Of a stretch of DNA of 64,000 nt, positions 2,947 to 30,838 are shown piece by piece. Within the stretch, counting starts at the first letter, position 1. Every line of letters begins with the position of its first letter. The position numbers and the translations under genes are program-made. The notes under the pieces are model-generated. The model did not search any database. It saw only the letters and a list, made by a program, of their open reading frames with translations, and was not told the origin of the DNA. Source of the DNA: an uncultured Gammaproteobacteria bacterium (GTDB lineage: Bacteria > Patescibacteriota > Patescibacteriia > 2-01-FULL-39-33); the NCBI GenBank assembly GCA_964512625.1, contig CAZEKG010000002.1, forward strand, positions 109,393-173,392, read 5' to 3'.

Positions 2947-5900
2947 ATGAGGTTAAAAAAATCTTCTCAAAATAAATTACTGATCATCTTGACTGTTTTA
3001 GTTTTGTTTTTAAGTTTCGGTTCGGCAGTTTTTGCCCAAACCCAAGCTAATGTTGACCTGACTAATGCTCAAATGGGCTTAGGCGGGGCAGATCTGAAAT
3101 CAGTAATTAAGGGGATTGTTAACGTTTTCTTTTCCTTTTTAGGCGTTATTGCTGTTCTAATACTTCTTTATGGCGGTTTTGTCTGGATGACGGCTGCTGG
3201 CGATGAAAGTAAGGTGGAAAAAGCGAAGAAAACCATTATTGCCGCTGTTATCGGTTTAGTGATTATTTTTTCCGCTTTCGCTATTGTTTCTTTCGTCTTT
3301 AGGGCTCTTAATGTAGCGACTGGCATACCAGGAACAGAACCTTGCAGTAATATTGGCGAAGTGACCAGCTGTTCGACTAGCGACAATTGTTCAGGTACTC
3401 GATATTGCCAAGCTTCCGGTTATTGGGGAGCTTGCTTAAAAACCGATCCGACTTGTCCGGGTGATTCTTTTTACAGTAATCAATTCTCCTATATTTTAGG
3501 CTTCTCTCTCGCGGGTAGTGGCTGGAATAAGAACTTAGGTCGCAATTTTTCCGGTACGGTTGCTGTACCTCAAAGCGCTAATCTATTTATTTACGGCTAT
3601 GCCCATGATCGGGAGAATATTATCAGTGAGATGAGTTTATGGGGCAGTCTTTCTTCTAGCTCAGAGGCTAAATTAGCTCAATTCAACAATCTTAATTCTG
3701 TTAAACAGTTAATCGGTTCCAAGGAGTATAATGTAGTTAGTAAGGCGAGTACAACCTGGAATACTTCCGGTTATGCGGTTGGTGATATCATTACTTTAAA
3801 AATTAAAGTTTCAACCGGCGCCTTCGCCTCAAAGAATATTAAGGCAAAAGTGTATGCTAGCCATTGTTTTAATGGTATAAAAGATGCAGACGAAAAAAAT
3901 GTTGATTGCGGCGGTAGTTGTTCGGCTTGTGATGGCGATTCATGTTTCGTAGCGACTAACTCAACTTGTTCAGGAGATAATTGTTTAAGTGGTATTTGCG
4001 GCGATAATTGCAAATGCGCCAGCTTGCCGATTATTGATTATATTTCTCCGGCAAAGGATGTTAATGGCGATAGTAATCCTTATCGCAGCGAAACCCTTGA
4101 TGATGATCTACCAAACGGCGCCCCGGGCAATATTATAACTATTTGGGGTCGCAGTTTCGGTTCCGCAACGGGTACGGTTATTTTTAAGGACAAGCAATCT
4201 GGCCAGCAATTCACTTCTTCGATTGCTCCTTGTAAGAGTAATAATTGGAATAATAATCAGCTTACAGTTCTTATTCCTCAATCAATTACTAATACTTTAA
4301 ATGTCGTTGATGAGAGTGGAGTAACTAGTACGACTCTTAATTATGAAGTTTTTATCGAAACAGCTAACCATCTTTTAAGCGAAGCCGGCAAGGGCTTCCA
4401 GGTTAATAAGATTGAAAGACCGGGAATTTGCAATATGGATCCTGACTCCGGCGTTTATCCTACAACAACAACCATTAACGGCATTAAATTTCCGATTTCA
4501 GGAACTCAAAATGTGCTTTGGAAAATTAAAAATGGCAGCCTTTTTGAAACGATAACTAGTACCTTAGCTAAGTCATGGACGGCGGCCAGTGTTATTGATA
4601 CTGCCTTGGAAAATAAAAATGGCGTTTCTAGTGTTAGGATATATAATGGATCTCAATATAGTAATTATTTTAAATTTTTATTAAGTTCCGGTGGCTTAAA
4701 CGCGCCTTGCGGTTTAGATCCCCGGGCTTGCGATCAAGACGTAACAACTTGCAATACCGGTTTGGCTTGTGATAAGGCTTCATGTACTTGCCAAAAAAGC
4801 AATACCAGTTGTTCTGTTGGCGAGAAGCAAGTTTGTGATAATGGTGGTTGCGCCGGCGATCAGACTTGCCGTCCGGATGGCGTTTTCGGTAATTGCATTC
4901 AAAGAGATAGTAAATGCATTCCAAAAACAGATAAAGTTTCTATTGCTGGGCAGACTTTTTATTCCTGGGCTTTCTTAACGAACCCGGGTGGCAATGGCCA
5001 ATCATGCGGGTATGATTATTGGGATGTTTGCGATATAAAAGGTTGTGGTAGTGGCTTAGCTTGTGATACGACGGGAACGAGCAGTCCTTACAATATTAAT
5101 AAAACGCCCTGTACTTGTTGGACGAAGGTTTGCGAACCGGCGACAGTCAGCTCGACTTGTAAAGCAATCGGTAAATGCGAAGCGAGAAGTGTTTGTAATT
5201 CTCAGGGAACTGCTTGGGGTGAGTGCGTTAAAGTAGATTATACTTGCAATCCTTTCCCAGAGATTGAGCCGGCCAGGCAAGCTTTTTATAGCTGGTCTTT
5301 TATGGCGTTTAAAAATGATCCTTTTAATGCCCCGGAGGTTATAGAAGATTGTAATAGGACAATTACTTGCCGAGACGGTTCAAAATTGCCATCGCCGACG
5401 CCTTGGTATAATCCGGTAGTCGGAGCTACCGACGAGGGCTGGTCAACAACAACCCATCCTAATTTAGTCGGTAATGTCCTCAATCCGAAAGCTTGCGTTA
5501 ACGCTATTATTTCAGCTCGGTTTAGCTTACCCATGAAACTTTCTTCTTTTGCCGGCAATATAAAAATAATGCAAATGGATGAGGCAAGCAGCACTTGGAG
5601 CGAAATTCCGATAACTGTTTCCAATTACCAATTATTGTCTGGAGGAACTCAATTAAACTTAAATCATGCTAATTTTTCTCCAGCTACTCGCTACAAGGTC
5701 GTTTTAAGGCAGGGTATTGCCAGTGACGCCGGAGTTAAGATTAAAAAATACAATGATGTTATAGGAAGTGATAAGAGAGATTGTAATGTCGGCGGTATAA
5801 ATGATGCGGCTTATTGCTGGAATTTTGTAACTCGAGCTGCAACCGATCCCGACCTTCTTTGTAAAGAGGGTTGTCCGACCTGCAGTCCCGATCCGACTCA

Positions 5901-8900
5901 GATGTTTTATTATGGAGAAGAAAAAGCCAATAATGCGGACTTAGATAGCGCCGATAATGTTTGCTTAATGCTTAATCCGTTTAATTATGATTGGTTTTGG
6001 GATAAGAAAAGCTACAATAATTTAGAGCGGATCGATGTTACTAATAACGATCTATTGAAATATGTTGCCGAGTCAAGCACTTTCGCTTATGGAAATGATG
6101 GTAAAAATGATCCATATCAAACCAGTACGGCGCGTGGCGAAACGATTAGCGACCCGGCTAAATCAACGAAGATTTTAGCTACCTTAGTAAAAACTGGGAA
6201 AGCGGGAATTTGCTATGTGGAAAATGATTTTACCAACCCGATTGTTATGGAAGATCAGTCTTGTAATAAGGGAACGACTCAAAGCCCGAGTCCTTGGAAG
6301 GGTTCGACGGATGCTTGTATAAATGGCGTTATTTCCTTGAGGTTTAGTCGTAATATGGTTAATAGTACGCTAGTTTCCGGTTCTGAAAAGACAGGTACGC
6401 AGGTTATTGATAAACAAACGGTTAATTTTAAGTATTATGAATCTCACCCTAATATTGTAATTCAAAAGTGTAATTCAAATACTGTTACTTCAACCGATAT
6501 AAACGCTTGTACTGATGTGGGAGTTGATTGGAAAACTATTTTATTTAAGTATAGCCATCAAACCATTTCGATTGCCGATATGATGGCCTCTAGTAGTGAG
6601 AATGTAAATGAGTTGCCGGAAGGCTTATCAATTTTGCCTTCGAGCAATCTTGATAAGAACCAGTGGTATCGAGTTATTATTATCGGCGGCCAAAACGGCG
6701 TTAGAGGAGCAAAAATAATTAATAGCAACGAAACTAAAGACGGTGTTTTAAGAGGAACCAATAATTCGCCATTGACGGATATGAACGGCGACGGCGAAGA
6801 TGATTATTATTGGATTTTTAAGACAGCCTCGGATAAATGTCCTATAAATTCGGTAACTGTTTTGCCTTTTTCCAAATTCATGAAATTTGTCTCCGAAACT
6901 CAAACTTATAACGCTTGGCCTCAAGCGGCTAATTGTAATATCTTAAATCCTTTGACTTACAATTGGAACTGGAAAGCTTTGATTGATTTAAATGATGATA
7001 GGTCTGATAATACCGATCCGGGAACCGGCAATGATATCGTTAAAGTATGTTCAGTAAATAATACTACTTGTTCTTCTTATGATAATCCTACCAGCTTCCA
7101 AGTTAATGCGACCGGAGAATCAGAAGGCTTAGTCAATCTTAAGGCTAGAGCTTTAGATACGGCTAAAACAGGGGAAGATTGGACGAGGGATAAATGGGGT
7201 TATAGTGTTCTTCAGGTCGGTTACGGCGGCTTTTATATCAGGAAACATTCTCCGGATTCGACTAAATGCTTAAATCCGGAAATAACCGCTCTTTTCTCTC
7301 TTGATGCTAAGTCTGAGTCTATAAATTTAGGCAGTAATTTCAGCTTATATAAGTGTCAGGGCGGTAATTGCAATACTGAAAAAGAGTTGGCCGAGCTTTC
7401 ACCTTTAGGACTTGGTACGGCTAATGCTAATCCTTTCTTGTCTAATCTTTTAAGAACGGAGCCGAAAGTTTATTTAGAGGCTAGTAGCACTTACCGGGTT
7501 ATCGCTAAAAGCGGCGAGAGCGGCTTGAAAGCTTGGAATGGCAATAGTTTGACCGGCTTGAATTATCGAACTAGCGGAACAGGCAACGGAGAGCAATGCG
7601 ATAAAGATGCCTATCCTTGGAAAGAGTTTAGCGGTTTATGTACTGATAAATGCCTTATTAGTACTTCAACAGCTTTTGCTGATTTATGTTCCTATCAAAA
7701 AGGAAGATTCGCTGAATGTAAATATACAACCAGTACCGCCGCTTATTGCGATAATACCTGTCACGCTTTAGGAAATACTAATACCGGTTCTTGCGGCAAT
7801 GGCAAGCTTGAAGCTGAGGAAGAATGCGATGATGGTAACTTTAAAGACGGCGATGGCTGTTCTTCAAGATGTCTTTTAGGAGGTTCAAGTGATAAATGGG
7901 GTTCAGTTTGCGGTAATGGCAAGCGCGAATACGGCGAATTATGTGATGATGGCAATCGAAGGGGTGGCGATGGCTGTTCTTCGGCTTGCTTAACTGATTC
8001 TCGTAAGATGGGAACGGCGACTAGCTCCCCGGTTTGCGGTAATAGTAGGGTAGAATTCGGAGAGTTATGTGATGATGGTAATAAGATCAGCGGCGATGGC
8101 TGTTCTAATAAATGTTTATTAGAGGGCTCGTCTAATGGCGCTGTTTGCGGCAATAAGGTTATGGAAAACGGCCAAAACGACAGCTATGCTTGGGATTTTA
8201 AAGTTGAAAGCAATGCTCAAGAATGCTTAGGTCCTAATTTAGAAAATAATCCTTGCCCTAATGGTATTTGGCGAGTTAATTTCCCGGATAGTAATAACAT
8301 GGAAGGGACAAAATATAATCAATTCTCAATTAAAGTTTGGCAAAAATCAAGCGTTGATGCTGGTAGTTGTGAAGTGATTGCCCAGGGTTTTTGGAAAACG
8401 ATTTTTAGAAAAGTTAAAGTCGCAGTTTTAAGGCTTTTCGGCCAAACCGCCTCGGCTGCTGATTATTGGTGTCCTTTTATTGAGGAGCAGGCTTTTGGAG
8501 CTAGTGATTTAACTGAGATGAAAAAAGGCAATTATGTTCGTACTTTTGACAATCCGGGAGTCAGCAATGCCGGACAAATAATTGCTTATACAGATGAAGT
8601 CGGCAATTATATTATTAATTTTGCTAGGACTGATGCGGCTTCTTGGCCGGCTAATGATTATAAGATGACTCTCAGTTATACTAGAGACCTGATTAATCAG
8701 GAAATAAATACGGATATAAAATTCGCTATTTCAAGGAATGCTTGTCCGATAAACGATGTAATGGTTAATGTTTGGCCTAAAGGCGAAGAAAGAAAGGATG
8801 ATACTTTCTTCTGTGCCGGAAATGATTGCGGTTCTAAGACTGCCGATCCTTATGATGATGATATGTCAGCTAATTGGACATACAGCAAGAATGGTTACGA

Positions 8901-11900
8901 TCTTAAAGAAGGAGTGGGTTATTTAGGCGGTAACCAGCATCTTTATCGCGCCTGGGCCTTAACTAATAGATATGGTCGGCCAATGGTTGTTCAGGCTAAT
9001 TTTAATTGGGACATGGAACATATTCCTTTTAATACTAAGACGACTAGCTCTGATTTCTCTCTGACAACTTACAATGGTGATAAATGGATTACTTCTGGCG
9101 ATGTTGGCGGACGAGACCTTTTAAATGTTACTGCTTCCGACGTTAATACTTTGGCGAGTACGACAGTAATGATTAGAACTTTCCTTTGTAATAATCCTTG
9201 GCCGACGCCGGCGAAATTCCCTTATATTGATTCTCGAGTGAATTGCGCTAATCCCGCTAATTGTGTTAATACCAACTTTGAGCTTTTTTATTGTCGAGAT
9301 AGCGGCGATAAGGAAACGACGGATGATGATCTTCCGGCCTTAACTCCTGATAACCCGATTGTCGTTCCAGGGGCTTCTGGTTCTGAAATTGTTAAAGAGT
9401 TTATTTTCCCAAGAGCCGATAAGACGACTAGCTCGGATGCAGTTGGTTTAAGAGTTATGAATAATAGCGGTAATGCGCTTGCCGTTTCAAAGATCTATTT
9501 AAGTCCGGCTGAGTGGTATTTTAATCAGTTTGATAAGGCGCGTCAGGGTAAGCCTAAAGGCCTTGTTGTTGATGGCTATCAGGCAGTCGAAGAAGGTAGG
9601 ACGGCTTATGTTAGCGCCGCCGATCTTAATGAGAATTTAGGAAATGCTTTTAATAATATTTATCTTCTTTCTTATAATGATAAAGCTGATCAGGGGACGA
9701 GAAATATTTATTCTCAAATATTAAGCAACCTGACTTTCAATACCGGAGAAGCGGAAAACGGCGGATTACTTGATAGCGCAGGGTCTTGTACTAATAACCC
9801 TGCTTATAAATGCTTTACTGATAAGGATTGTAAGGGATTCGGTTTTTGCGATTCCCCGAAATCGAGGATTACGAGGGATACGAAGAGGTTAGCCGATATT
9901 AGCGATATAAACCTAGGATTGGAAAAATATAAAGCTGTTAAGAGATGCAGTAATGACCATAGTAAAACTTGTTTAAGTAGTTCGGTTTGCGCCGATAACG
10001 GAACTTGCGGTAATTATTATCCTACTTTGACTTCTGGAACTTATGTGGCTAATAATTCTTTAAGTTCTTGGCTTTCTTGGGAAAGTACTTTGGCGGCGGC
10101 TTTAGGTATGATTTTACCGGTTGATCCAAGGAATGAGTTATCTGGCTGTACCGGATCTTATTCTTCGACGACTTGCTGGAGCGAGATTAAGAAAGAAATG
10201 GCTTGCCCTTCCGATTCCTCATTTAATTATTTTTATCATGCGGATAAAAATCCGACTTCTACTATTATGGGTACGGCTAAGATTTTAGGAACTAAATGCG
10301 AATATTGCGTTAATAGTAATGGTGATGATATATGGTCTAATTCAGACTATACTAATTCAATCTTTGGGCCTACTAATTCGGTTATTAGATCTTTCTGTAT
10401 TGATAAGGTAAAAGAAACTTGCGGTAATGGAATTTCCGATATTGCTAATGGTGAAAATTGCCATAATTGCCCGTCTGACTTTAAGGCGGCTTGTAGCAAT
10501 GGGGCGGTTTGTCAAAACTTGGGCACGAATATTAGTCCAAACTGGCAATGTAAGGCTTATGATACAGATGGAGATAATTTTAGCGATGCTATTGATAATT
10601 GTAAGTACGTTAAAAATGGTTGGAATTGGCCGGGGTTATGTATTGCTAATGGCAATGCTTCGCAGTCTTATTTATGTGATCAATTTGATAGTGATCGCGA
10701 CGGAGTTGGCAATGCCTGTGATAACTGTTATCAGGCATTAGGTCCTAATGATAAGCCCGATCCATCTAATAAAGACTCTGATGGCGACGGAATCGGCGAT
10801 GCTTGCGATAACTGCCTTAATAAATGGAATCCGGGACAGGAAGATGATGACGGCGATAAAGTCGGCAATACTTGCGATAATAGTAAGGATGTTAAAAACG
10901 GCGCTTCAGGTAATAATATGACATGTCCTTTGTCTACTCCTCAATCTTATTGCAATCAAAAAGATACTGATGGCGACGGGGTTGGCGATGCCAGCGATAA
11001 TTGTCTTAATAAGAAAAACCCCGATCAAAAGGACTCTGATACTGACGGTTTAGGGGATGTTTGCGATAATTGTCCGACTAAGGCTAATCCTGACCAAAAA
11101 GATGGCGATTTAGACAGCTATGGCGACGCTTGCGATAACTGCCCGACGACTTTCAATCCTAATCAGGATTCGAGGGCTTGTTATAATCCTAATTGCGGCA
11201 ATGGGGCGCAGGATCGCGGAGAGGCTTGTGATTGCGGCACTGACCCGAACAACATTCCTTCCACATGTAATTATATAAATAATTTTAATGTTAATATCTT
11301 AGATATTGAATATAACAAATCCGTACGGGTTTGTATGAATAACTGCCAATTAGATCAAAAATTTGAAGGACCTAAATGTGGGGATGGTATAAAAAATGGT
11401 GCGGAGTCTTGTGATAATGGGTCTCAAAATGGCGTAGTTCCAGCTGCTGGTGGTTATGGTCAGCCAGCCGTAGAGTATTGTACTACTGAGTGTCAAATTG
11501 CTAGTGTAGCCTCTCCAAGGTGTGGCGATGGAACTATTCAGTCGGGGGAGGTTTGTGATACGCCTAATCAAGATGGTTGCGCTCCTGATTGTAAGTCGAA
11601 ATGCGGCAATGGAATTGTGGAAAAAGCCCAAGGAGAAATCTGTGACGATAGTAATGGGAATTCAGGCGATGGTTGCAGTTCTACTTGTAGGGTAGTAGAA
11701 ACTGGCTATAATTGCTTTTATCGTTTTGTTTCCGGAAGATTAGAGAGCGTTTGTCAATCAATTTGTCCGCCAGATAGAGGAGTAGGTAGGTGGACTAGCG
11801 AGGTTTTGAAATATGGCAACAATAATACTTCTAATAATTTTGGTACAATTGGCTCTGTTTATAATAGTTGGCTCCAAGTTCCAAAATGCAAATCTTTTAG

Positions 11901-13104
11901 TGGTATATTTAAAGCTGATGTAAATGTTTCCGGCTCGCCTGGTAGCTTGGCTGTGGTTTTTGTTTCGGATATTTCCGGATCTATGGACGGCAAAACTAAT
12001 GCCTTGTCTCAGGCGATTACTTCTTCATCTGATGAATTATCTAAGAAATTTGGAGCTAATATTGCTCTAGTCCATTTTCATACTAATACTATAGGTGATA
12101 AAGAGTTAATTGGTGATATGTTTTCTGAGAGCTGTTCAGGTAATTATGATTCTAATGGGGTCTGGAGTAATGGTAAGGATACTAAGTATTGTTGCGCTAG
12201 CTCTAATGGTAGGGGTAATTATTTTTGCAACTCTAGCGATTTATTAACGGGTTTTTCTAGTTTAACTAGCTTTATTAGCGATAGGACAAGTAAGATCTAT
12301 GGGAGATATGTCAATGGGGGTACTCCTACGGCTTCCGGATTAGATAGAGCTAGAGCAATTTTAAATACATCTACGGCAGATAAGAAAATAATTATTTTGA
12401 TGTCAGATGGCATGTATGATGGAATTAATCCTTTAAGTACCTCTACTAATATAAAGGCTGGTGGTACTAAAATATATGTAGCGGCATTTACTACTAGTTC
12501 TACTCTCGCTAATATGATGTCTACATGGTCAAGTAATAATAATAGTTCTTGCGGGAGTGGTTATTGCTATTATAGTGGTAATGTTACTGATTTATATGAA
12601 AATATAACATCTAATATTCAGTCGGAATTGGATTCTTACTCGGTAACTATTTTTAATAATAATACTTATTATTATGGAATAAGTCCCTATACTTATAATC
12701 AATCAAAGTATTCCTGGACGGACGGTTATAGCTCTAAAGTTTCAATTCCTAATACAAGCAATAACACTCCTTCAGGCGTAACTTTATCTGCTTTTACTGG
12801 TTTTTGTGCTCCTTCTAATGGCACAGGTGATTATGTTGGTAGAAGTATAACCGTAAAAACGACTAACCCGATTTCTGCTGGAACTAGCTGGAAGGTTAAT
12901 ATCAGTAATGTAACCATGGAGTATTGTCCTCTTGATCCAGTTGGCTATTCTTCTGATATTAATAATCCGACGCTTGGATTATCTCAATCGAACTCTCAAG
13001 TCGCCGGAGCTTATGAGGAAAATGACAATCTATATCAAAGATTCATTGCTACGATAGCTAATAGTTGGAAATTCCTTTTTTCATCAATCATTAATCTTTT
13101 TTAA
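2947..13104 (+). CDS. Giant (3385 aa) multidomain cell-surface adhesin-like protein. It has a Sec signal peptide and a VirB2/TrbC-pilin-like membrane hairpin. Its modules are EGF-like Cys-rich segments, Myxococcus-type cysteine-rich repeats, thrombospondin type-3 Ca-binding repeats, and a vWA domain with a MIDAS motif.
   Basis: The signal peptide is MRLKKSSQNKLLIILTVLVLFLSFGSAVFA|QT. The hairpin (nt ~3076-3306) is LGGADLKSVIKGIVNVFFSFLGVIAVLILLYGGFVWMTAAGDESKVEKAKKTIIAAVIGLVIIFSAFAIVSFV. Cys-rich repeats of the form CGNGxxExGExCDDGNxxxGDGCSxxC occur 3-4 times at nt ~7792-8160 and again at ~11194-11695. Seven TSP3 repeats (DxDxDGxGDxCDNCxxxxNPxQxD) lie at nt ~10561-11170. The vWA domain (LAVVFVSDISGSMDG ... 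SGLDRARAIL ... KKIIILMSDGMYDG) lies at nt ~11944-12500. A single uninterrupted 10.2-kb ORF. Confidence 0.7.
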   Translation: MRLKKSSQNKLLIILTVLVLFLSFGSAVFAQTQANVDLTNAQMGLGGADLKSVIKGIVNVFFSFLGVIAVLILLYGGFVWMTAAGDESKVEKAKKTIIAAVIGLVIIFSAFAIVSFVFRALNVATGIPGTEPCSNIGEVTSCSTSDNCSGTRYCQASGYWGACLKTDPTCPGDSFYSNQFSYILGFSLAGSGWNKNLGRNFSGTVAVPQSANLFIYGYAHDRENIISEMSLWGSLSSSSEAKLAQFNNLNSVKQLIGSKEYNVVSKASTTWNTSGYAVGDIITLKIKVSTGAFASKNIKAKVYASHCFNGIKDADEKNVDCGGSCSACDGDSCFVATNSTCSGDNCLSGICGDNCKCASLPIIDYISPAKDVNGDSNPYRSETLDDDLPNGAPGNIITIWGRSFGSATGTVIFKDKQSGQQFTSSIAPCKSNNWNNNQLTVLIPQSITNTLNVVDESGVTSTTLNYEVFIETANHLLSEAGKGFQVNKIERPGICNMDPDSGVYPTTTTINGIKFPISGTQNVLWKIKNGSLFETITSTLAKSWTAASVIDTALENKNGVSSVRIYNGSQYSNYFKFLLSSGGLNAPCGLDPRACDQDVTTCNTGLACDKASCTCQKSNTSCSVGEKQVCDNGGCAGDQTCRPDGVFGNCIQRDSKCIPKTDKVSIAGQTFYSWAFLTNPGGNGQSCGYDYWDVCDIKGCGSGLACDTTGTSSPYNINKTPCTCWTKVCEPATVSSTCKAIGKCEARSVCNSQGTAWGECVKVDYTCNPFPEIEPARQAFYSWSFMAFKNDPFNAPEVIEDCNRTITCRDGSKLPSPTPWYNPVVGATDEGWSTTTHPNLVGNVLNPKACVNAIISARFSLPMKLSSFAGNIKIMQMDEASSTWSEIPITVSNYQLLSGGTQLNLNHANFSPATRYKVVLRQGIASDAGVKIKKYNDVIGSDKRDCNVGGINDAAYCWNFVTRAATDPDLLCKEGCPTCSPDPTQMFYYGEEKANNADLDSADNVCLMLNPFNYDWFWDKKSYNNLERIDVTNNDLLKYVAESSTFAYGNDGKNDPYQTSTARGETISDPAKSTKILATLVKTGKAGICYVENDFTNPIVMEDQSCNKGTTQSPSPWKGSTDACINGVISLRFSRNMVNSTLVSGSEKTGTQVIDKQTVNFKYYESHPNIVIQKCNSNTVTSTDINACTDVGVDWKTILFKYSHQTISIADMMASSSENVNELPEGLSILPSSNLDKNQWYRVIIIGGQNGVRGAKIINSNETKDGVLRGTNNSPLTDMNGDGEDDYYWIFKTASDKCPINSVTVLPFSKFMKFVSETQTYNAWPQAANCNILNPLTYNWNWKALIDLNDDRSDNTDPGTGNDIVKVCSVNNTTCSSYDNPTSFQVNATGESEGLVNLKARALDTAKTGEDWTRDKWGYSVLQVGYGGFYIRKHSPDSTKCLNPEITALFSLDAKSESINLGSNFSLYKCQGGNCNTEKELAELSPLGLGTANANPFLSNLLRTEPKVYLEASSTYRVIAKSGESGLKAWNGNSLTGLNYRTSGTGNGEQCDKDAYPWKEFSGLCTDKCLISTSTAFADLCSYQKGRFAECKYTTSTAAYCDNTCHALGNTNTGSCGNGKLEAEEECDDGNFKDGDGCSSRCLLGGSSDKWGSVCGNGKREYGELCDDGNRRGGDGCSSACLTDSRKMGTATSSPVCGNSRVEFGELCDDGNKISGDGCSNKCLLEGSSNGAVCGNKVMENGQNDSYAWDFKVESNAQECLGPNLENNPCPNGIWRVNFPDSNNMEGTKYNQFSIKVWQKSSVDAGSCEVIAQGFWKTIFRKVKVAVLRLFGQTASAADYWCPFIEEQAFGASDLTEMKKGNYVRTFDNPGVSNAGQIIAYTDEVGNYIINFARTDAASWPANDYKMTLSYTRDLINQEINTDIKFAISRNACPINDVMVNVWPKGEERKDDTFFCAGNDCGSKTADPYDDDMSANWTYSKNGYDLKEGVGYLGGNQHLYRAWALTNRYGRPMVVQANFNWDMEHIPFNTKTTSSDFSLTTYNGDKWITSGDVGGRDLLNVTASDVNTLASTTVMIRTFLCNNPWPTPAKFPYIDSRVNCANPANCVNTNFELFYCRDSGDKETTDDDLPALTPDNPIVVPGASGSEIVKEFIFPRADKTTSSDAVGLRVMNNSGNALAVSKIYLSPAEWYFNQFDKARQGKPKGLVVDGYQAVEEGRTAYVSAADLNENLGNAFNNIYLLSYNDKADQGTRNIYSQILSNLTFNTGEAENGGLLDSAGSCTNNPAYKCFTDKDCKGFGFCDSPKSRITRDTKRLADISDINLGLEKYKAVKRCSNDHSKTCLSSSVCADNGTCGNYYPTLTSGTYVANNSLSSWLSWESTLAAALGMILPVDPRNELSGCTGSYSSTTCWSEIKKEMACPSDSSFNYFYHADKNPTSTIMGTAKILGTKCEYCVNSNGDDIWSNSDYTNSIFGPTNSVIRSFCIDKVKETCGNGISDIANGENCHNCPSDFKAACSNGAVCQNLGTNISPNWQCKAYDTDGDNFSDAIDNCKYVKNGWNWPGLCIANGNASQSYLCDQFDSDRDGVGNACDNCYQALGPNDKPDPSNKDSDGDGIGDACDNCLNKWNPGQEDDDGDKVGNTCDNSKDVKNGASGNNMTCPLSTPQSYCNQKDTDGDGVGDASDNCLNKKNPDQKDSDTDGLGDVCDNCPTKANPDQKDGDLDSYGDACDNCPTTFNPNQDSRACYNPNCGNGAQDRGEACDCGTDPNNIPSTCNYINNFNVNILDIEYNKSVRVCMNNCQLDQKFEGPKCGDGIKNGAESCDNGSQNGVVPAAGGYGQPAVEYCTTECQIASVASPRCGDGTIQSGEVCDTPNQDGCAPDCKSKCGNGIVEKAQGEICDDSNGNSGDGCSSTCRVVETGYNCFYRFVSGRLESVCQSICPPDRGVGRWTSEVLKYGNNNTSNNFGTIGSVYNSWLQVPKCKSFSGIFKADVNVSGSPGSLAVVFVSDISGSMDGKTNALSQAITSSSDELSKKFGANIALVHFHTNTIGDKELIGDMFSESCSGNYDSNGVWSNGKDTKYCCASSNGRGNYFCNSSDLLTGFSSLTSFISDRTSKIYGRYVNGGTPTASGLDRARAILNTSTADKKIIILMSDGMYDGINPLSTSTNIKAGGTKIYVAAFTTSSTLANMMSTWSSNNNSSCGSGYCYYSGNVTDLYENITSNIQSELDSYSVTIFNNNTYYYGISPYTYNQSKYSWTDGYSSKVSIPNTSNNTPSGVTLSAFTGFCAPSNGTGDYVGRSITVKTTNPISAGTSWKVNISNVTMEYCPLDPVGYSSDINNPTLGLSQSNSQVAGAYEENDNLYQRFIATIANSWKFLFSSIINLF
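3050..3320 (+). repeat. ~270-bp direct repeat. The coding sequence for the pilin-like hairpin domain is duplicated between the two giant genes; the partner copy is at nt 1-270.
   Basis: By eye, nt 1-270 and ~3050-3320 align at roughly 75% nucleotide identity. Examples: ggcggagccgatcttaag vs ggcggggcagatctgaaa; tatggcggttttatttggatgacggctgg vs tatggcggttttgtctggatgacggctgc; tttgctattgtttcttttgtt vs ttcgctattgtttctttcgtc. The encoded protein segments match. Confidence 0.6.
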
Positions 13105-13127: not shown

Positions 13128-13904
13128 ATGTTTGATCAAATTCCTCAAAACCCTCAGGGCACAGTTCCGCCAAATGGCCCTAGTCCTATGCAGCCGCCTT
13201 CAATGCCTAATCCTTTGGGCGGTTTTCCGACGCCTTCCGCGCCAGTCCCGAATCAAGTCCCGACTCAAAATCCGGTTGCTTCAGCCGAGCCGGAAGATAT
13301 TTTTTCTCAAACGGAAAAAGGAACGATGAGTGGAGCCGTTAATCCCGGCAACTATGCTAATCCTAATTTTGGTCAGCCAACTAGCTCCGGCGATTTATTC
13401 GGCAAGAAGCCTTTTCCCTTAAAAAACCTTGTAATCGGTTTAGTCGCTTTAGTAATTATCCTGGCGGCGGTCGGAATCGGCTACTTTGCTTTTACTTTTT
13501 TCAGCGCTAGCTTGAAACAGCCGGTAACGCCTATTGTTAATAAGGAAATTAATAATGAACCGGTAAATAATTCTACCGGCCTTGATCCTAACTTAGCTCC
13601 GACTTCAACGGCGGTTACGGCGACTACTACAGCGATAACAACCGAAGTTATTAATGATACCGCTAAAGATACTGATGGCGACGGTTTGACTGATTCCGAA
13701 GAGAGGGAATTAGGAACGGATGTTAATAATTTTGATTCAGATACGGATGGACTGACCGATCGAGCGGAAGTCAAGATTTATAAAACCAACCCTCTTAATC
13801 CTGATACGGACGGTGACGGCCATAAAGACGGAGCGGAAGTCATTAACGGTTATGATCCGTTAAAAGGCAATGGCGCAAAATTATTCGAGGTACCAAAAAA
13901 ATAA
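13128..13904 (+). CDS. Small single-pass membrane protein. It has a Pro/Gln-rich N-terminal region, one TM helix, a Thr-rich linker, and C-terminal TSP3-like DxDxDG calcium-binding repeats.
   Basis: The TM helix is LVIGLVALVIILAAVGIGYFAFTFF. The repeats are DTDGDGLTDSEERELGTDVNNFDSDTDGLTDRAEVKIYKTNPLNPDTDGDGHKDGAEV. It is a paralog of the next gene. Confidence 0.55.
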   Translation: MFDQIPQNPQGTVPPNGPSPMQPPSMPNPLGGFPTPSAPVPNQVPTQNPVASAEPEDIFSQTEKGTMSGAVNPGNYANPNFGQPTSSGDLFGKKPFPLKNLVIGLVALVIILAAVGIGYFAFTFFSASLKQPVTPIVNKEINNEPVNNSTGLDPNLAPTSTAVTATTTAITTEVINDTAKDTDGDGLTDSEERELGTDVNNFDSDTDGLTDRAEVKIYKTNPLNPDTDGDGHKDGAEVINGYDPLKGNGAKLFEVPKK

Positions 13905-13919
13905 ATAACCAATATAGTT

Positions 13920-14984
13920 ATGTTTGGCGAGAAAGAAAATAATCCTCAAGAGCCTCAGGCTCAGCAAGCTACTCCGCCGGCGCCCGTTGCCGTTACTCGC
14001 GACGATGTTTATGTTATGCCGGAAAAGTTTTTAACTAAGGAGCCGAAATCTTCCGGCAAGCCGCTAGTTATCGCTTTAGTAGTTTTAGTCTTATTAGTGA
14101 TCTCAACCGGCATCTACTTCCTTTTTGATTATTGGCAAAGGAGTCAATTAGCTCTAAAGGAGCAGGCGAATAACATCGAGAATCAACAATCAGTCGAAGA
14201 AGACAACCAGCCTTTAATCGAAGATCCTGGTTTACTTCAAGCGACAACAACCGAAGAAACGGCGACTTCAACTTCAGCGACAACAACTGAAGCGATTGTT
14301 ACTCCGACTTCGACTACACCCGTTGTTCAATTACCCCCGACTCTTAGCCCGGACTCGGATAATGATGGCTTAACCGATATCGAAGAGGGGATAATTGGTA
14401 CTTCGCCGACTAATCCAGATACTGACGGCGATGGCTATAAGGATGGTAGTGAAATTTTATCAAGCTATAGCCCTAAAAAGGCGGGCGGCGGCGAAGCGAA
14501 TAAGTTAGTCAATGCTGATTTCATTAAGAAGTCAATCAGTAATTTTATGGCTAATAACTTTTCTTTCTTAACTATTAAGGATTGGCCGATTAACTTCATA
14601 GAAGTGAATAATCAGGCGGTTATCGCTGTTCCGACCGGAGAAGTAATCAGGATTTCGGTCAAGGATAATCCTAACCGTTTATCAGCTGTTAATTGGTATT
14701 CCCAACTTAATCCGGGAGTTATTCTTAGTCAGCTTAAGCCGATTCAATCAGGCAATTTAAGCGGCGTTTTTTCCGATATGGGGCTTCAAGCTTATTTAAC
14801 CGATGAAACGAAAAGCGTTATTTATGTGCTTGATTATTCCCTAGAAGCCGGTTCGCCATTTAAATATCCGGCCATATTCTCAATGATGGCGAGTACTTTA
14901 ACCCCCGTAGCTGGAAATCTTAAGGGTTCGGCCGTAACTACTAGTAATGTCAATAATCCAAGTTCTTCAACCATAAATCAATAA
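13920..14984 (+). CDS. Paralogous single-pass membrane protein. It has an N-terminal Pro/Gln-rich region, a TM helix, a Thr-rich linker, TSP3-like Ca-binding repeats, and a C-terminal domain of unknown function.
   Basis: The TM helix is LVIALVVLVLLVISTGIYFLF. The repeats are DSDNDGLTDIEEGIIGTSPTNPDTDGDGYKDGSEI. It has the same architecture as the 13128-13904 gene. Confidence 0.55.
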   Translation: MFGEKENNPQEPQAQQATPPAPVAVTRDDVYVMPEKFLTKEPKSSGKPLVIALVVLVLLVISTGIYFLFDYWQRSQLALKEQANNIENQQSVEEDNQPLIEDPGLLQATTTEETATSTSATTTEAIVTPTSTTPVVQLPPTLSPDSDNDGLTDIEEGIIGTSPTNPDTDGDGYKDGSEILSSYSPKKAGGGEANKLVNADFIKKSISNFMANNFSFLTIKDWPINFIEVNNQAVIAVPTGEVIRISVKDNPNRLSAVNWYSQLNPGVILSQLKPIQSGNLSGVFSDMGLQAYLTDETKSVIYVLDYSLEAGSPFKYPAIFSMMASTLTPVAGNLKGSAVTTSNVNNPSSSTINQ

Positions 14985-14987
14985 GCG

Positions 14988-15434
14988 ATGCTGACTTTTG
15001 AAGTAAATGAAAAAGCGGAATTAAAATATAATCGGGATTTAATCAATCAAATCACAAGGATATTTTATAAGCAAGCCGGCTTGAAAGGCGGTTGGGATTT
15101 TTCCTTAGCCCTCGTTGACGGTAAAGCTATCCGCCGCTTAAACAGGATTTATCGAGGTAAGGATAAGGTAACGGATGTTTTAAGTTTTGAAGAAGAAAAA
15201 GATGCTTTTCCTGGAGTGAAGAATTTTTTAGGAGAAATAATAATTTGCCCTTCAAGATTAAGAAGACAAGCCCGAGAATATAAAGTCAGTGTTGATCAGG
15301 AATTCTCTCGTTTGCTAGTCCATGGGCTTAGCCATCTTCTCGGATATGATCATGAGAATGTTACACTGAAAAAAAGACAGGAAATGGAAAGATTCGAGGA
15401 GAATATTCTTAGTAAGATTAAATTTAATAAATAG
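14988..15434 (+). CDS. ybeY: rRNA maturation endoribonuclease YbeY
   Basis: The HGLSHLLGYDHE zinc-binding motif near the C-terminus is the UPF0054/YbeY signature; the size is 148 aa. Confidence 0.8.
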   Translation: MLTFEVNEKAELKYNRDLINQITRIFYKQAGLKGGWDFSLALVDGKAIRRLNRIYRGKDKVTDVLSFEEEKDAFPGVKNFLGEIIICPSRLRRQAREYKVSVDQEFSRLLVHGLSHLLGYDHENVTLKKRQEMERFEENILSKIKFNK

Positions 15435-15473: not shown

Positions 15474-15502
15474 TTGAAGAATCGGCGTTTTTTTACTATA
15501 AT
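15474..15502 (+). promoter_or_regulatory. Putative sigma70-type promoter upstream of ftsA: TTGAAG, 17-nt spacer, TATAAT.
   Basis: The -35 element TTGAAG is at 15474-15479 and the -10 element TATAAT is at 15497-15502. Confidence 0.4.
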
Positions 15503-15566: not shown

Positions 15567-16835
15567 TTGGTTTTACCAATAAACAGTTATCCCATGCTTA
15601 AAGACAGTTTGATTACCGGTTTAGATATCGGATCTACAACCATTAGGATGGTTACCGGTCAAAAACAACGAAACGATGAAAAGCTTAAAATAATCGGAGC
15701 CGTCGAGGTTCCGGCCCAGGGTATAAGCAAAGGCGTTGTTGTTGGCGTAGAAGATGCCGTCTCTTCGATATCTTCGGCTATTGAAAAACTGGAAAGGATG
15801 GTCGGTCAGCCTATTGATCATGCTTGGGTGGGAATTTCAGGTAGCCATATTATCGCTCAGGAAAGCCATGGCGTAGTTATGGTTTCTAAGACTGATGGCG
15901 AAATAAGGCATGAAGATGTTGAGCGAGTGATTGAAGCGGCTCGAGTCGTAGCGACTCCGCCTAACTTTGAGATCCTCCATGTCATTCCGAAAAGCTTTAC
16001 GGTTGATTCTCAAACCGGGATTAAAGATCCGATTGGTATGACCGGCTTAAAGCTTGAAGTCGAGGCTCAAATCATCCAAGGCTTAAGTTCCCAAATCAAG
16101 AATCTTACTAAATGTATTTATCGGACAGGAATCAATATAGATGATTTAGTAATGTCCGTTTTAGCTTCCACTGAGGCGGTTTTAACTAATCGCCAAAAGG
16201 ATTTAGGTGTTGTCGTCATTAATCTCGGCGGCGCCACGACCAGCGTGGTAGTTTATGAAAATAATAATGTTTTGCATACTTGCGTTATTCCTATGGGTTC
16301 GGAATATATAACCAGTGATATCGCTATCGGCTTAAGAGTTTCGATTGAAACGGCGGAAAAGATAAAGATAAGAGAGGGTAGTTGCCTACCGAAGGAATTT
16401 AAAAAACAAGACGAAGTTAAATTTTCTGATTTAAACGCTCCCGAGGAAGGCTCTTTTTCAAGGAAGGATGTGGCTGAAATCGTAGAAGCGAGAGTCGAGG
16501 AGATATTCGAGCGTGTTGATAGGGAGTTAAAAAAGATCGGCCGCTCCAGTATGTTGCCGGCCGGAGCTGTTTTAACTGGTAGCGGCGCTAAGATGGATGG
16601 TATAGTAGAAACAGCTAAGAGATGCTTAAGATTGCCAGCCTCCTTAGGTTATCCTCAGGAACTTATCTCTAACCTCGATAAGGTAAGCGATCTTTCATTT
16701 ACGACGGCGGTCGGTTTAGTTCTTTGGGGCAATCAGTTAAAAGGCAAGAAGGGGTCGGGGAGAACGCTCGGAGTTGGCGGCGTTGATAAAGCGGTCGGCC
16801 AATTAAAAGATTGGTTCAAGGCCTTTATTCCATAA
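15567..16835 (+). CDS. ftsA: Cell division protein FtsA. The start is uncertain; an alternative ATG lies at 15591.
   Basis: Actin-like ATPase motifs are present: GLDIGSTTIRMV, and DLGVVVINLGGATTSVVVYE in the phosphate 2 region. The C-terminal region is also present. The gene is immediately upstream of ftsZ. Confidence 0.85.
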   Translation: MVLPINSYPMLKDSLITGLDIGSTTIRMVTGQKQRNDEKLKIIGAVEVPAQGISKGVVVGVEDAVSSISSAIEKLERMVGQPIDHAWVGISGSHIIAQESHGVVMVSKTDGEIRHEDVERVIEAARVVATPPNFEILHVIPKSFTVDSQTGIKDPIGMTGLKLEVEAQIIQGLSSQIKNLTKCIYRTGINIDDLVMSVLASTEAVLTNRQKDLGVVVINLGGATTSVVVYENNNVLHTCVIPMGSEYITSDIAIGLRVSIETAEKIKIREGSCLPKEFKKQDEVKFSDLNAPEEGSFSRKDVAEIVEARVEEIFERVDRELKKIGRSSMLPAGAVLTGSGAKMDGIVETAKRCLRLPASLGYPQELISNLDKVSDLSFTTAVGLVLWGNQLKGKKGSGRTLGVGGVDKAVGQLKDWFKAFIP

Positions 16836-16873
16836 AAAATTGAAGAATTTAGATATACCTAATTAAAACTACT

Positions 16874-18181
16874 ATGCCAGAAATAAAACCAGAAATTGAA
16901 ACTTTTGCTAAAATTAAAGTTGTCGGCGTCGGCGGTTCAGGCGGTTCCGCGGTTAATAGGATGATTAGTGCGAGAATTAAAGGCATTGAATTCATTACTA
17001 TTAATACGGATGTTCAAGCTCTTCATCAAAGCCAAGCCAAACATAAACTACATATTGGACAAACGACGACTAGAGGTTTGGGTGCTGGTATGGATCCCTT
17101 AGTTGGGATGCAGTCGGCTCAAGAAAATATCAATGAAATCCGCGATCTTTTAAAGGGTTCGGATATGGTTTTTGTGACTTGTGGTTTAGGCGGCGGAACC
17201 GGAACTGGCGCTTCGCCGGTTGTGGCAGCAGTAGCTAGGGAATTAGGAGCTTTAGTGGTTGGCGTAGTGACTAAACCTTTTAAATTTGAAGGTTCTCAAA
17301 GATCGAAGATAGCAGAGAGAGGATTGCAAGAATTAAGAGAGAATGTTGATACTATTATAACTATCCCTAATGATCGTATTCTCCAGATCGTTGATAAAAA
17401 GACACCTTTATTGGATGCCTTTAAGACGGTTGATGATATTCTTCGCCAAGGCGTCCAGGGTATTTCCGAAATCATTACGGTTCCGTCTTTGATAAATGTT
17501 GATTTTGCCGATGTTAAGGCGGTTATGAGAGGTACTGGTTCAGCTCTTATGGGTATCGGCGAAGCGAGCGGTGAGAATCGAGCTATGACAGCGGCAAAGA
17601 TGGCCATTTCTTCTCCTTTATTGGATATTTCCATTGAAGGCGCTAAAGGAGTTCTTTTCATAATCGTTGGCGGCCCATCAATGACTATGAATGAAGTTTA
17701 TGAAGCAGCCAATATTATTACAGAATCCTCCGATCCCGATGCCAAGATTATTTTTGGCGCCGCTATTGATGAAAATTTAAAAGATAAGCTAAGGATAACG
17801 GTTGTTGCGACCGGTTTCGGCGATGGCATCAATAATATTCAATCTCTAAGCGAAGTTCCAAGGTATACTGTTAATAAGGCTTTCATTAAGAAGAGTATTG
17901 AAGATATGGATGTTGTTTCTGAGATAAAAAGAGAGGTTAGAGAAGAAAGAGTGCCGGTTGAAGAAAAGATTGTTAGCAGGTTTAATCAGGAAAGCCGGAA
18001 TGCCATAAGTGATAATCCGCCAGCATTCCAAGCGAAGGTTAATCAGCCCGTAAGTCAGCCGGTTAGGCCTCAAGCCCAGGTTAGTCAACGGCCTCAGCCG
18101 GAGAGAATTGACCCGGTTGTCGAAGATGATGAAGAAGATATTGAGATCCCGACTTTCTTAAGAAGAAAAATGAAATCTTAA
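16874..18181 (+). CDS. ftsZ: Cell division GTPase FtsZ
   Basis: The tubulin signature GGGTGTG is present, as is the [15 protein letters not shown]-terminal motif. The C-terminal tail is Pro/Gln-rich with a conserved terminal peptide (IEIPTFLRR). Confidence 0.9.
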
Positions 18182-18553: not shown

Positions 18554-20605
18554 ATGGAGCCAACTCAAATCAAGCAAATTAGGAAAAGAGACGGAAGTAT
18601 TACTGACTTCGATCAAGATAAAATCACCCAAGCCCTTTTTAAATCATTAAAGGCGGCTGGTTTGGAAGACTTGGAGTTGGCTAAGCGGGTTTCTGATAAA
18701 GTTATTCAGGGACTTAATAATAAATTCCATCCTCGCTCTATTCCGGCGATTGAAGAAATCCAGGATCTTGTTGAAGAAACTTTGATTAAAGAAGACTTGG
18801 CTAAAGCGGCTAAATCATATATCATCTATCGCGAACAGCATGCCCGTTTAAGAGAAATTAAGGACATGATAAACTCCGATGATATTATCGAAGGCTATCT
18901 TAAGCAATTGGATTGGAGAGTGAAAGAGAACGCTAATATGGCTTATTCTCTCCAGGGATTAAATAACCACGTCGCTTCAGCTGTCAGCTCTCACTATTGG
19001 CTTAATAAGGTTTATCCGCCGGAAATAAGAGATGCTCATACTAACGGTAGCGTTCATATCCATGACCTGCAGCTCTTAGCTGTTTATTGCTGCGGTTGGG
19101 ATCTTCAAGCTCTTCTTAGGCTTGGTTTTGGAGGTGTGGATGGTAAAGTGACTAGCGGCCCAGCTAAACATTTCAGGGTGGCTTTGGGTCAAATTGTTAA
19201 TTTTTTTTATACGCTTCAAGGCGAGGCGGCTGGAGCCCAGGCTTTCGCTAACTTCGATACGCTCCTAGCTCCTTTTGTGAGGTATGACGGCTTAGATGAG
19301 AAGGCGGTTAAACAGGCGATGCAGGAGTTTATCTTTAATATGAATGTTCCGACTAGGGTCGGCTTCCAAACGCCTTTTACCAATTTAACTTTTGATTTAA
19401 CTTGTCCCGGAACTTTGGCTGACGATCATGTCTTGATTGGCGGTATTCCTCAGGCAGAGACCTATAAGGATTTTCAACATGAAATGGATGTTATTAATCG
19501 AGCTTTTGCCGAAGTTATGATGGCTGGCGATTCTAAGGGCCGAGTTTTTACTTTTCCTATTCCGACTTACAATATTTCCAAGGATTTTGATTGGGAGAAT
19601 AGGATTTTAGACCCGGTCTGGGAGATGACTTCTAAATACGGTATTCCTTATTTTGCCAATTTTATCAATAGCGACATGAAAGCCGAAGACGCGAGAAGTA
19701 TGTGTTGTCGTTTAAGGTTAGATAATCGAGAATTAAGAAAGCGAGGCGGCGGTATTTTTGCGGCCAATCCATTAACTGGCTCGATTGGCGTGGTAACTAT
19801 AAATCTTCCGAGAATTGGTTATTTATCAAAGACCGAGGAAGCTTTCTTCAGCCGTCTTGGTCAGATCATGGATCTTTCTAGGTTAAGTTTGAAGCTGAAA
19901 CGAGAAGTTTTGGAAAGCTTTACTGAGCTCGGCTTATATCCTTATAGTAAATTTTATCTTAAAGACATTAAAGAAAGATTTGGAGAATATTGGAAAAATC
20001 ATTTTAATACTATTGGTATTAATGGCATGAACGAATGCGTGCTTAATTTTATGGGCCGTCCTTTAAGCACTGAAGAAGGTAGGGAGTTTGCTGTTAAGAT
20101 TATGGATTTCATGCTTAATCGCTTAGCTCAATATCAGGAAGAGGACAATCAGCTTTATAACCTTGAGGCGACTCCGGCGGAAGGAGCGACTTATCGCTTT
20201 GCTAAGAAAGATAAGGAGATAAATCCAGATATTATTGTTGCTAATGAAGAGTCTTATCAGGAAAAAGGAGCGGCGCCTTATTATACTAATTCAACTCATT
20301 TGCCAGTCGGCTATTCGACTGATATCTTTGAGGTTTTAGAAAATCAGGATATTTTACAGACTAAATATACCGGCGGAACCGTTATTCATGGCTTTATCGG
20401 TGAACAATTGCCAGATATCGAGAGTACTAAGAATTTAGTTAGAAAGATAGCCGAGAATTTCCGTTTACCTTATTATACTCTGACTCCAACTTTCTCCGTT
20501 TGCCCGAAGCATGGCTATTTATCAGGCGAGCATCATTTTTGCCCGCTCTGTGACGAAGAAATCGGCTTTATTAGGGAACAGGAAGATAAATTGCCTTTGA
20601 TTTAA
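18554..20605 (+). CDS. nrdD: Anaerobic ribonucleoside-triphosphate reductase (class III) NrdD: main body with an N-terminal ATP-cone, ending inside the C-terminal zinc ribbon.
   Basis: The N-terminus has an ATP-cone (KRDGSITDFDQDKITQAL). The catalytic core carries CCRLRLD and the ANPLTGSIGVVTINLPRIGY region. The C-terminus has CPKHGYLSGEHHFCPLC and then a stop. The glycyl-radical motif is not in this ORF. Confidence 0.8.
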   Translation: MEPTQIKQIRKRDGSITDFDQDKITQALFKSLKAAGLEDLELAKRVSDKVIQGLNNKFHPRSIPAIEEIQDLVEETLIKEDLAKAAKSYIIYREQHARLREIKDMINSDDIIEGYLKQLDWRVKENANMAYSLQGLNNHVASAVSSHYWLNKVYPPEIRDAHTNGSVHIHDLQLLAVYCCGWDLQALLRLGFGGVDGKVTSGPAKHFRVALGQIVNFFYTLQGEAAGAQAFANFDTLLAPFVRYDGLDEKAVKQAMQEFIFNMNVPTRVGFQTPFTNLTFDLTCPGTLADDHVLIGGIPQAETYKDFQHEMDVINRAFAEVMMAGDSKGRVFTFPIPTYNISKDFDWENRILDPVWEMTSKYGIPYFANFINSDMKAEDARSMCCRLRLDNRELRKRGGGIFAANPLTGSIGVVTINLPRIGYLSKTEEAFFSRLGQIMDLSRLSLKLKREVLESFTELGLYPYSKFYLKDIKERFGEYWKNHFNTIGINGMNECVLNFMGRPLSTEEGREFAVKIMDFMLNRLAQYQEEDNQLYNLEATPAEGATYRFAKKDKEINPDIIVANEESYQEKGAAPYYTNSTHLPVGYSTDIFEVLENQDILQTKYTGGTVIHGFIGEQLPDIESTKNLVRKIAENFRLPYYTLTPTFSVCPKHGYLSGEHHFCPLCDEEIGFIREQEDKLPLI

Positions 20606-30775: not shown

Positions 30776-30796
30776 TTTCTATATTTTAGAACATAA

Positions 30797-30835
30797 AAGA
30801 ACAGCAACTGAAATCGGTTGCTGTTCTTTATTTAA
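30797..30835 (+). terminator. Rho-independent terminator after fusA
   Basis: The hairpin is AAGAACAGCAAC-TGAAATCG-GTTGCTGTTCTT, followed by a T-rich run. Confidence 0.6.
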
Positions 30836-30838
30836 ATT

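Follow-up and report, generated by a model that had tools for sequence, protein, structure and literature searches.

What holds giant surface proteins on the cells of Patescibacteria? The question is raised by a stretch of 64,000 nucleotides (nt), here called the window, from contig CAZEKG010000002.1 of an uncultured bacterium that belongs to this group (assembly GCA_964512625.1). Near its left end, two genes for giant pilin-fused surface proteins are followed by two open reading frames (ORFs) for small membrane proteins, ORF-A and ORF-B (A and B). Patescibacteria make up a large part of uncultured bacterial diversity. To our knowledge, all cultivated Patescibacteria are attached to other microbes, and we know of no molecules that hold giant surface proteins on their cells. 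Here we define a four-gene surface cassette comprising the two pilin-fused giants and the two small calcium-repeat membrane proteins. We propose that A and B are membrane-anchored partner subunits that dock the upstream giant, B through a domain that it shares with the giant, and we give this proposal about an even chance of being correct.

A (13128..13904, 258 amino acids, aa) and B (13920..14984, 354 aa) lie on the plus strand, as do all features of the window described below unless stated. An earlier reading of this DNA, made without database searches (the sequence-only reading), had given exactly these coordinates and had described two single-pass proteins with Pro/Gln-rich N-termini, Thr-rich linkers and aspartate-rich repeats, a description that is confirmed. 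Each protein has a single strong hydrophobic segment (2.8-2.9 in 19-residue Kyte-Doolittle windows), and the linkers contain 19-20% Thr. The Lys residues N-terminal of the transmembrane (TM) helix, taken with an ectodomain of calcium-binding repeats, indicate that both proteins are bitopic with an N-in/C-out topology. To compare these genes across lineages we used 90 related loci (cited by L numbers), gathered by looking up homologues and by scanning species-representative genomes; ORFs were called in all of them, and profiles derived from the window and from the A and B alignments were run against these.

The N-terminal tail of A (residues 1-95) is 22% Pro and 8% Gln, and a hydropathy scan places the TM helix at aa ~99-123 (13422..13496). 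The predicted cytoplasmic part carries the motif EDIFSQTEK (aa 56-64, 13293..13319; family form EDIFSxT(D/E)K), in which D57 is invariant across a 58-sequence alignment and F59 is present in at least 90% of the sequences. The family also shares an MFD start, a second patch, (D/E)LFGG, ahead of the TM helix and a conserved GxARLFEVP tail. Three repeats of the TSP3_bac type occupy aa 181-247 (13668..13868), reading DTDGDGLTD at residue 181, DSDTDGLTD at 203 and DTDGDGHKDG at 226. Their ligands D181, D183, D185, E192, D203, D205, D207, D211, E214, D226, D228, D230, D234 and E237 are invariant in the same 58 sequences. A 279-aa protein in L078 (5445-7385) has an A-like VEDIF cytoplasmic motif and TM helix with a different ectodomain, so that the A-type anchor module has seemingly been combined with other ectodomains; it adjoins a 336-aa TSP3 membrane protein bearing a Cys-rich insert. 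In the window itself, a 114-aa ORF at 21541-21885 weakly matches the A N-terminal profile (E 0.001), probably through TM or low-complexity similarity.

B has a short, Pro-rich tail, one TM helix (aa ~48-70 by hydropathy, 14061..14129; 47-86 in its AlphaFold2 (AF2) model), an acidic, Thr-rich linker, two TSP3_bac repeats (aa 145-185, 14352..14474) and a C-terminal domain (aa ~195-335, 14502..14924). Its predicted cytoplasmic motif, DVYVMPEKF (aa 29-37, 14004..14030), has the family form (D/E)VYVMPEKF; M33 and P34 are invariant in an alignment of 62 sequences, and the low-complexity linker is variable. The repeats, DSDNDGLTD at residue 145 and DTDGDGYKDG at 167, are 12-residue loops of the EF-hand type (DxDxDGxxDxxE) in which D145, D147, D149, E155, E156, D167, D169, D171, D175 and E178 are invariant across the 62 sequences. 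Conserved residues of the C-terminal domain in this alignment are W259, Y260, G288, Y292, Y302, Y306 and Y316. About 60 full-length relatives with 25-46% identity come from Patescibacteria metagenomes, and an exhaustive search with the C-terminal 162 residues of B returned 252 clusters at 50% identity, nearly all of 330-450 aa with the domain at the C-terminus.

The AF2 model of B, built from the 62-sequence alignment, has a mean predicted local distance difference test score (pLDDT) of 82, with 94-98 over residues 140-330 and about 98 in the repeats, so the repeats and the C-terminal domain are confidently placed as one unit. As modelled, the domain is a Mog1/PsbP-like alpha-beta-alpha sandwich that superposes on PsbP and Mog1. 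Its structural match scores are 11.7 for BT_1490, 10.6 for mycobacterial Apa, 10.4 for the type VI secretion system immunity protein TplEi, 9.9 for Mog1, 9.5 for LpqN and 9.2 for PsbP, and a Foldseek search concurs with this fold. By sequence, the window B protein gave no match to PF01789 (PsbP) even at E up to 1 and no Pfam match for the domain; a precomputed PF01789 label is found on one B homologue only (P0008). The domain diverges fast (mean p-distance 0.75 vs 0.39 for FtsZ), as expected for surface-exposed proteins. In a subset of B orthologues (P0013, P0023, P0026, P0029 and P0042) the PsbP-like domain is followed by a further ~60-70 aa rich in Cys, at columns ~770-860 of the 62-sequence alignment.

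The relationship of this domain to the upstream protein carries most weight in our argument. Giant 2 (2947..13104, 3385 aa) has a signal peptide, a VirB2-like two-helix pilin domain at its N-terminus (Pfam T4SS_pilin, E 8.3e-11) and a large extracellular part with Big_5, Cys-rich repeats (NCBIfam myxo_disulf_rpt, TIGR02232, E 4.7e-41), Cys-type TSP_3 repeats (E 1.7e-11) and a VWA domain (E 8.6e-7). Giant 1 (2..2929) is likewise a pilin-fused surface protein (T4SS_pilin at the N-terminus, E 8.9e-6; Big_5, E 7e-10), so that both giants begin with a VirB2-like T4SS_pilin/TrbC domain. The frame of giant 1 is open from nt 2 and continues beyond the window on the left; the ATG that the ORF list gives at 116 is internal. 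The region of giant 2 most widely kept among related giants is a core at aa 2050-2450 (9094..10296), where a coverage map has its maximum (23-27 loci per residue across aa 2100-2400). Within this core, aa ~2149-2268 (9391..9750) are homologous to the C-terminal domain of B. In hhalign, a profile of giants only matches the B-family profile with a probability of 97.5% (E 8.3e-12, 100 columns). A hidden Markov model (HMM) of B proteins only matches giants of six loci (E 5e-5 to 7e-3). Four of these could be aligned to the window giant by single-sequence search, and in them the match falls at the position homologous to aa ~2150-2270. A jackhmmer search from the giant core recovers giants in about 45 loci together with five B proteins at E 7e-14 to 3e-6. 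Judged by these profile comparisons, B carries at its C-terminus a paralogue of the giant's best-conserved domain; of the new findings, this one argues most strongly for a connection between the small proteins and the giant.

Two further features of the giants may be mentioned here. Residues ~2300-2450 of giant 2 (9850-10296) carry a signature resembling the head of a pseudopilin or GspG (RDTKRLADxxDI...YPxL...LPVDPxN). A pilin or GspG-like domain in the core was considered and is kept as a lead only; the one profile match was sub-threshold, to Pfam T2SSG in homologue P0241 (E 0.016; 15.7 bits vs a cutoff of 21). A tandem of a ~650-880 aa pilin protein and a ~1770-2220 aa pilin giant recurs in L007, L009, L019, L024, L038, L041 and L045.

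Gene order gives the second line of evidence. B is present in 59 of the 90 loci, and 47 of these have enough upstream sequence (at least 1.5 kb) to be assessed for a giant, for which either the core domain or the pilin domain served as the criterion. Directly 5' of B there is a small TSP3 gene in 57 of the 59, the remaining two being at a contig edge. An ORF with the giant core domain lies upstream in 42 of the 47 assessable loci, in 40 of them within 600 nt of the first TSP3 gene, and pilin-fused giants in two further loci (L028, L045) bring the total to 44. The pilin domain is present wherever the N-terminus of the giant falls inside the locus. No break was seen between A and B, and a break between the giant and A occurs in three of the 47 loci at most. 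In the window, gaps of 23 nt between the giant 2 stop and A and of 15 nt between A and B indicate co-transcription of all three genes; promoter and terminator scans around A and B found promoter-like and terminator-like sites no more often than in shuffled sequence. The sequence-only reading had suggested that the pair are accessory or anchoring partners of the adhesins and should recur with pilin-fused giants in related genomes. The recurrence is borne out, and the suggestion is well supported by gene context and, in addition, by the shared domain. A second small TSP3 gene is present in 13 of the 59 loci, which suggests that the A-type gene has been repeatedly duplicated or lost; two small TSP3 membrane genes stand 5' of B in L008, L027, L031, L037, L040, L044, L048, L051, L059, L062, L064, L065 and L073.

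Both sets of repeats exceed the gathering score (25 bits) of Pfam TSP3_bac (PF18884), with 63.5 bits for A (E 1.5e-17, three stretches) and 27.9 bits for B (E 2e-6, two stretches), so that the TSP3-type calcium-binding profile expected from the sequence alone is indeed matched. Because none of the canonical EF-hand ligand positions varies among 62 B and 58 A homologues, the repeats are predicted to bind Ca2+. Neither protein matches PF02412, the eukaryote-type TSP_3 family, and their repeats contain no Cys. The sole match in sequence searches of the PDB is the TSP3-like calcium region of S. aureus Bap. The description of A and B as paralogous is borne out only in part, as significant BLASTP similarity is confined to 49 residues of the repeat region (57% identity, E 5e-14). 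The similarity of the N-terminal profiles comes from the TM helix, and the 140-aa C-terminal domain of B is missing from A. An opening MF and a tail motif of acidic-aliphatic-aromatic type (EDIF in A, DVYV in B) recur in the two families, a likeness that is no more than suggestive of a common origin.

The sequence-only reading had taken the repeats of A and B to be the same as those of the giant and had raised the idea of calcium-dependent docking between them. If so, TSP3 repeats of the small proteins would dock onto those of the giant through shared calcium ions. The window giant has six DxDxDG-type repeats at aa 2539-2745 (10561..11181), and calcium binding by TSP3 repeats is on record for OmpA-family proteins (Dai et al. 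2017, cited in PMC12045341). However, the giant repeats are of the Cys-containing PF02412 type (DxDxDGxGDxCDNC), whereas those of A and B are Cys-free PF18884; these are related but distinct subfamilies. Among 47 related giant ORFs, TSP3_bac motifs and TSP3 HMM matches are absent throughout, and 45 of them have no TSP3 motif, the Cys-type motifs occurring in one protein only, found twice in the duplicate loci L003 and L004. The A-B pair is conserved in all of these loci, and the coverage map shows the TSP3 stretch of giant 2 to be common to only 4-6 other loci. Such docking would need TSP3 repeats in the giants and is thus unsupported. As a general mechanism it is largely refuted, and we consider it extremely improbable.

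A number of observations weigh against our own proposal, and each is best judged together with the explanation that it would favour. The first is that conserved gene order also extends downstream. A ybeY gene (14988..15434; Pfam YbeY, E 7e-34) begins 3 nt after B and is probably co-transcribed with it, to judge from the sequence; ftsA and ftsZ follow at 15567..18181 (ORF list, with Pfam labels on homologous loci). Among the related loci, 53 of 59 have ybeY as the next gene after B, and 49 of 57 have ftsA no more than 2.5 kb away. A and B could then be divisome or envelope-biogenesis proteins like FtsN, FtsQ/L/B or PilN, whose motifs bind FtsA or FtsZ, the giants being mere neighbours. In line with this, both families have conserved short cytoplasmic motifs beside the TM helix, and in L016 the genes after B are mreC and one for a PBP2-type transpeptidase. 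Like PilN/PilO and FtsN/FtsQLB, A and B are adjacent single-pass proteins predicted to be N-in, with a short motif by the TM helix, near a gene for an actin-like ATPase (ftsA). In formal terms this recalls PilN and FtsN, whose N-terminal peptides contact PilM and FtsA, respectively.

Counter to this, ybeY, often with dgkA as well, always stands between B and ftsA, and the top promoter-like site of the scanned region (15474-15502) lies just 5' of ftsA in the 132-nt gap between ybeY and ftsA. The junction between B and ybeY has been broken at least three times independently. In L013, B is followed by a reverse transcriptase and an ABC transporter; in L016 (10859-14121), by mreC, a small ORF and the transpeptidase instead of ybeY-ftsA-ftsZ; and in the clade of L018, L030, L034 and L037, about five ORFs are inserted ahead of ftsA (in L030, the one scanned, clpP, secD, secF, a Wzy_C-TPR protein and a prepilin peptidase). 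After these breaks A-B still lies directly 3' of giants wherever this can be checked (L013, L016, L018, L030 and L037; L034 has 1.1 kb upstream only). This pattern of breakage implies that A-B is tied to the giants more tightly than to ybeY, ftsA and ftsZ. The ectodomains differ as well. Neither Pfam nor NCBIfam gave a division-family match above cutoff for A or B, the nearest being far sub-threshold ones to FliL and the YidC N-terminus; FtsQ/DivIB, FtsL, FtsB and FtsN were among the families sought, and no POTRA, leucine-zipper or SPOR ectodomain was found. The combination of a profile match and a ferredoxin-like ectodomain, as in PilN/PilO, was likewise not seen, and the modelled ectodomain of B has the Mog1/PsbP fold, not a POTRA or PilO-like one. 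A candidate link through the A N-terminus, a protein between ftsA and ftsZ in L005, was rejected because it matches the TM segment only and has no EDIF. A divisome role for A and B therefore seems unlikely to us.

A second group of observations concerns specificity. TSP3_bac repeats also occur on unrelated envelope proteins of Patescibacteria, such as YkuD L,D-transpeptidases, to which they are fused, and with OmpA domains in other phyla; the repeats themselves are thus not specific to giants. All loci come from one related group, the cassette being found in a subgroup of the Patescibacteria (Falkow-, Uhr-, Magasanik-, Buchanan-, Kerfeld- and Komeilibacteria), and part of the giant-A-B linkage could be gene order inherited within one clade. 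A mirror-tree comparison of the B domain with the giant core, controlled for FtsZ and FtsA, gave a partial r of 0.02, a value reached by 853 of 2000 permutations, in a test that is weak because distances saturate at ~0.7. These points would suit a reading in which A and B are generic calcium-binding spacers of the wall zone, comparable to TSP3-bearing OmpA and YkuD proteins, with no specific partner and a synteny that is simply inherited. Inherited gene order does not, however, explain a homologous domain in B and the giant. Nor does it sit well with flanks that have been rearranged repeatedly, together with the downstream junction, around an intact giant-A-B unit: the cassette is kept down to ~25% identity of B, and the outer flanks differ (rpsU-yqeY, relA or others upstream; nrdD, lipase or DUF2079 proteins 3' of ftsZ). 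The short gaps that indicate co-transcription argue in the same direction. Generic spacers are, in our judgement, improbable.

Third, three of the 47 assessable loci (L026, L036 and L060) have no recognisable giant directly upstream. L036 and L060 have other secreted proteins there. In L026 (1-4513) the usual place of the giant is taken by a zeta toxin, a 479-aa protein and, directly 5' of A-B, a type IV secretion system (T4SS) coupling protein (TrwB_AAD_bind, E 1.8e-13), which could reflect either the insertion of a mobile element or a connection to a T4SS. The latter would fit the idea that A and B are assembly or secretion factors, comparable to the bitopic T4SS components VirB8 and VirB10, that would help the giants' VirB2-like pilin domain to insert or polymerise. 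The T4SS_pilin/TrbC domain at the start of both giants agrees with this, as does the wide occurrence of VirB2-like pilins in Patescibacteria (PMC12102498). A profile or fold match to VirB8 or VirB10 in combination with neighbouring virB4/virB6 was not found for A and B, and we think it very unlikely that they are such factors.

Lastly, on the giant side the fold is unconfirmed. The AF2 model of the giant core, from a homologue search that gave three proteins and hence a four-sequence alignment, has a pLDDT of 36.6 and is unusable, resembling B only in the order of its secondary structures (beta-alpha-beta4-alpha). Since modelling of the giant segment failed, a Mog1/PsbP-type fold there is deduced from the homology with B.

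With these points in mind, the docking of the giant by A and B can be pictured as follows. Both proteins would insert N-in/C-out and leave in the cytoplasm a disordered tail with its conserved short motif. Outside, a Thr/Pro/Asn-rich spacer of ~50-75 residues, long enough to span the wall zone, would present two or three EF-hand-type TSP3_bac loops, which Ca2+ binding would turn into a rigid module. B would display beyond them its Mog1/PsbP-fold domain, a fold that serves elsewhere as an extracytoplasmic protein- or ligand-binding module. B, through the shared domain, and A, through its calcium-loaded repeats and conserved C-terminal peptide, may then bind the base of the giant and hold it to membrane and wall. 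The cytoplasmic motifs would give an almost wholly extracellular giant an intracellular handle, should they have a partner inside the cell.

The closest precedent for such an arrangement is TraA/TraB of Myxococcus xanthus, in which a surface receptor forms a 1:1 complex with a TSP3-repeat envelope anchor encoded in the same operon (PMC12045341). In both cases the gene of a large Cys-rich receptor adjoins that of its partner or putative partner, in which TSP3 repeats separate a membrane anchor from a second domain facing the envelope; TraA/TraB and the window giant even share the same type of Cys-rich repeat (TIGR02232). The differences are also clear. TraB forms a beta-barrel in the outer membrane and has an OmpA peptidoglycan-binding domain, whereas A and B appear as single-pass proteins of the cytoplasmic membrane, each with a single TM helix and no Pfam match to OmpA (PF00691). 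TraA has one partner and a MYXO-CTERM anchor, whereas here there are two small proteins and the giant would be anchored by its VirB2-like pilin domain. We found no homology beyond the repeats, and the comparison is therefore offered as a functional analogy only.

Other known systems resemble parts of A and B. Other bacterial PF18884 proteins, among them OmpA-TSP3 proteins, CglD and the MtsC/MtsD of Myxococcus, have the same family of DxDxDG calcium-loop repeats, and CglD is a calcium-dependent adhesin component that stabilises a trans-envelope machine (bioRxiv 10.1101/2023.10.19.562135). The local NCBIfam matches of A and B to CglD and MtsD come through the repeats only (31 vs a cutoff of 800 and 29 vs 400), and A and B differ from these proteins in being much smaller and bitopic and in having neither VWA nor OmpA domains. 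Many members of the Mog1/PsbP-fold group, which includes PsbP, BT_1490, Apa, LpqN, Mtc28, TplEi, Tsi3 and DcrB, are extracytoplasmic binding modules. The B domain is only 8-14% identical to them in sequence, and none of those listed combines the fold with TSP3 repeats and a TM anchor or has a paralogue within a giant adhesin. Finally, the tandem 12-residue EF-hand-type loops recall dockerins, with a short helix behind each loop (residues 153-159 and 175-180 of modelled B). The dockerins of cellulosomes are the classic calcium-dependent docking device for extracellular complexes. No match of A or B to the dockerin family PF00404 was found at E up to 1, nor any cohesin-like partner, for which no systematic search was made, and we treat the likeness as a resemblance only.

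A more far-reaching version of our proposal is that giant, A and B together form a trans-envelope coupling device whose cytoplasmic motifs recruit a machine inside the cell, with the products of the adjacent ftsA and ftsZ genes as obvious candidates. We regard this as a long shot. If it were true, the placement of, or tension on, a giant host-attachment organelle would be tied to the cell-division or cytoskeletal apparatus, a link in ultra-small epibiotic bacteria akin to that made by integrins at focal adhesions. Pairs of TSP3_bac repeats would serve as dockerin-like, calcium-dependent connectors on the outside.

The modules involved, TSP3_bac and the Mog1/PsbP fold, are known; the protein family, its cytoplasmic motifs and the giant-A-B cassette are uncharacterised. 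Full-text literature searches returned no description of the A-B pair or of relevant TSP3 proteins in Patescibacteria or Parcubacteria, and a recent survey of T4SS and VirB2-like pilins in Patescibacteria makes no mention of giant fusions or TSP3 partners (PMC12102498). Given known building blocks and a function deduced from context, we see the cassette as a solid lead, not a surprise. The analysis assigns a predicted fold to a family of about 250 clusters so far annotated only as 'TSP3 repeat'. It also provides testable handles, in the form of peptides, domain boundaries and calcium dependence, on how giants may be anchored and possibly controlled from inside.

Some observations on the wider surroundings remain. 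The outer flanks of related loci include rpsU-yqeY upstream (L008, L010) and ybeY-dgkA downstream (L007-L010). They recall the rpsU-yqeY...phoH-ybeY-dgkA-era neighbourhood of Firmicutes, with the giants and A-B filling the middle. In L003 and L004 (14815-18078) the gene 3' of ftsZ encodes the anaerobic ribonucleotide reductase NrdD with an intein (Pfam Intein_splicing); the NrdD copy of the window (18554-20605, 683 aa) is free of an insert of intein size. Further downstream in the window, the GC content rises locally to 0.48 over 30001-33160, compared with ~0.39 elsewhere, just where the region has its only long ORFs on the minus strand (30888-31916 and 31913-33160).

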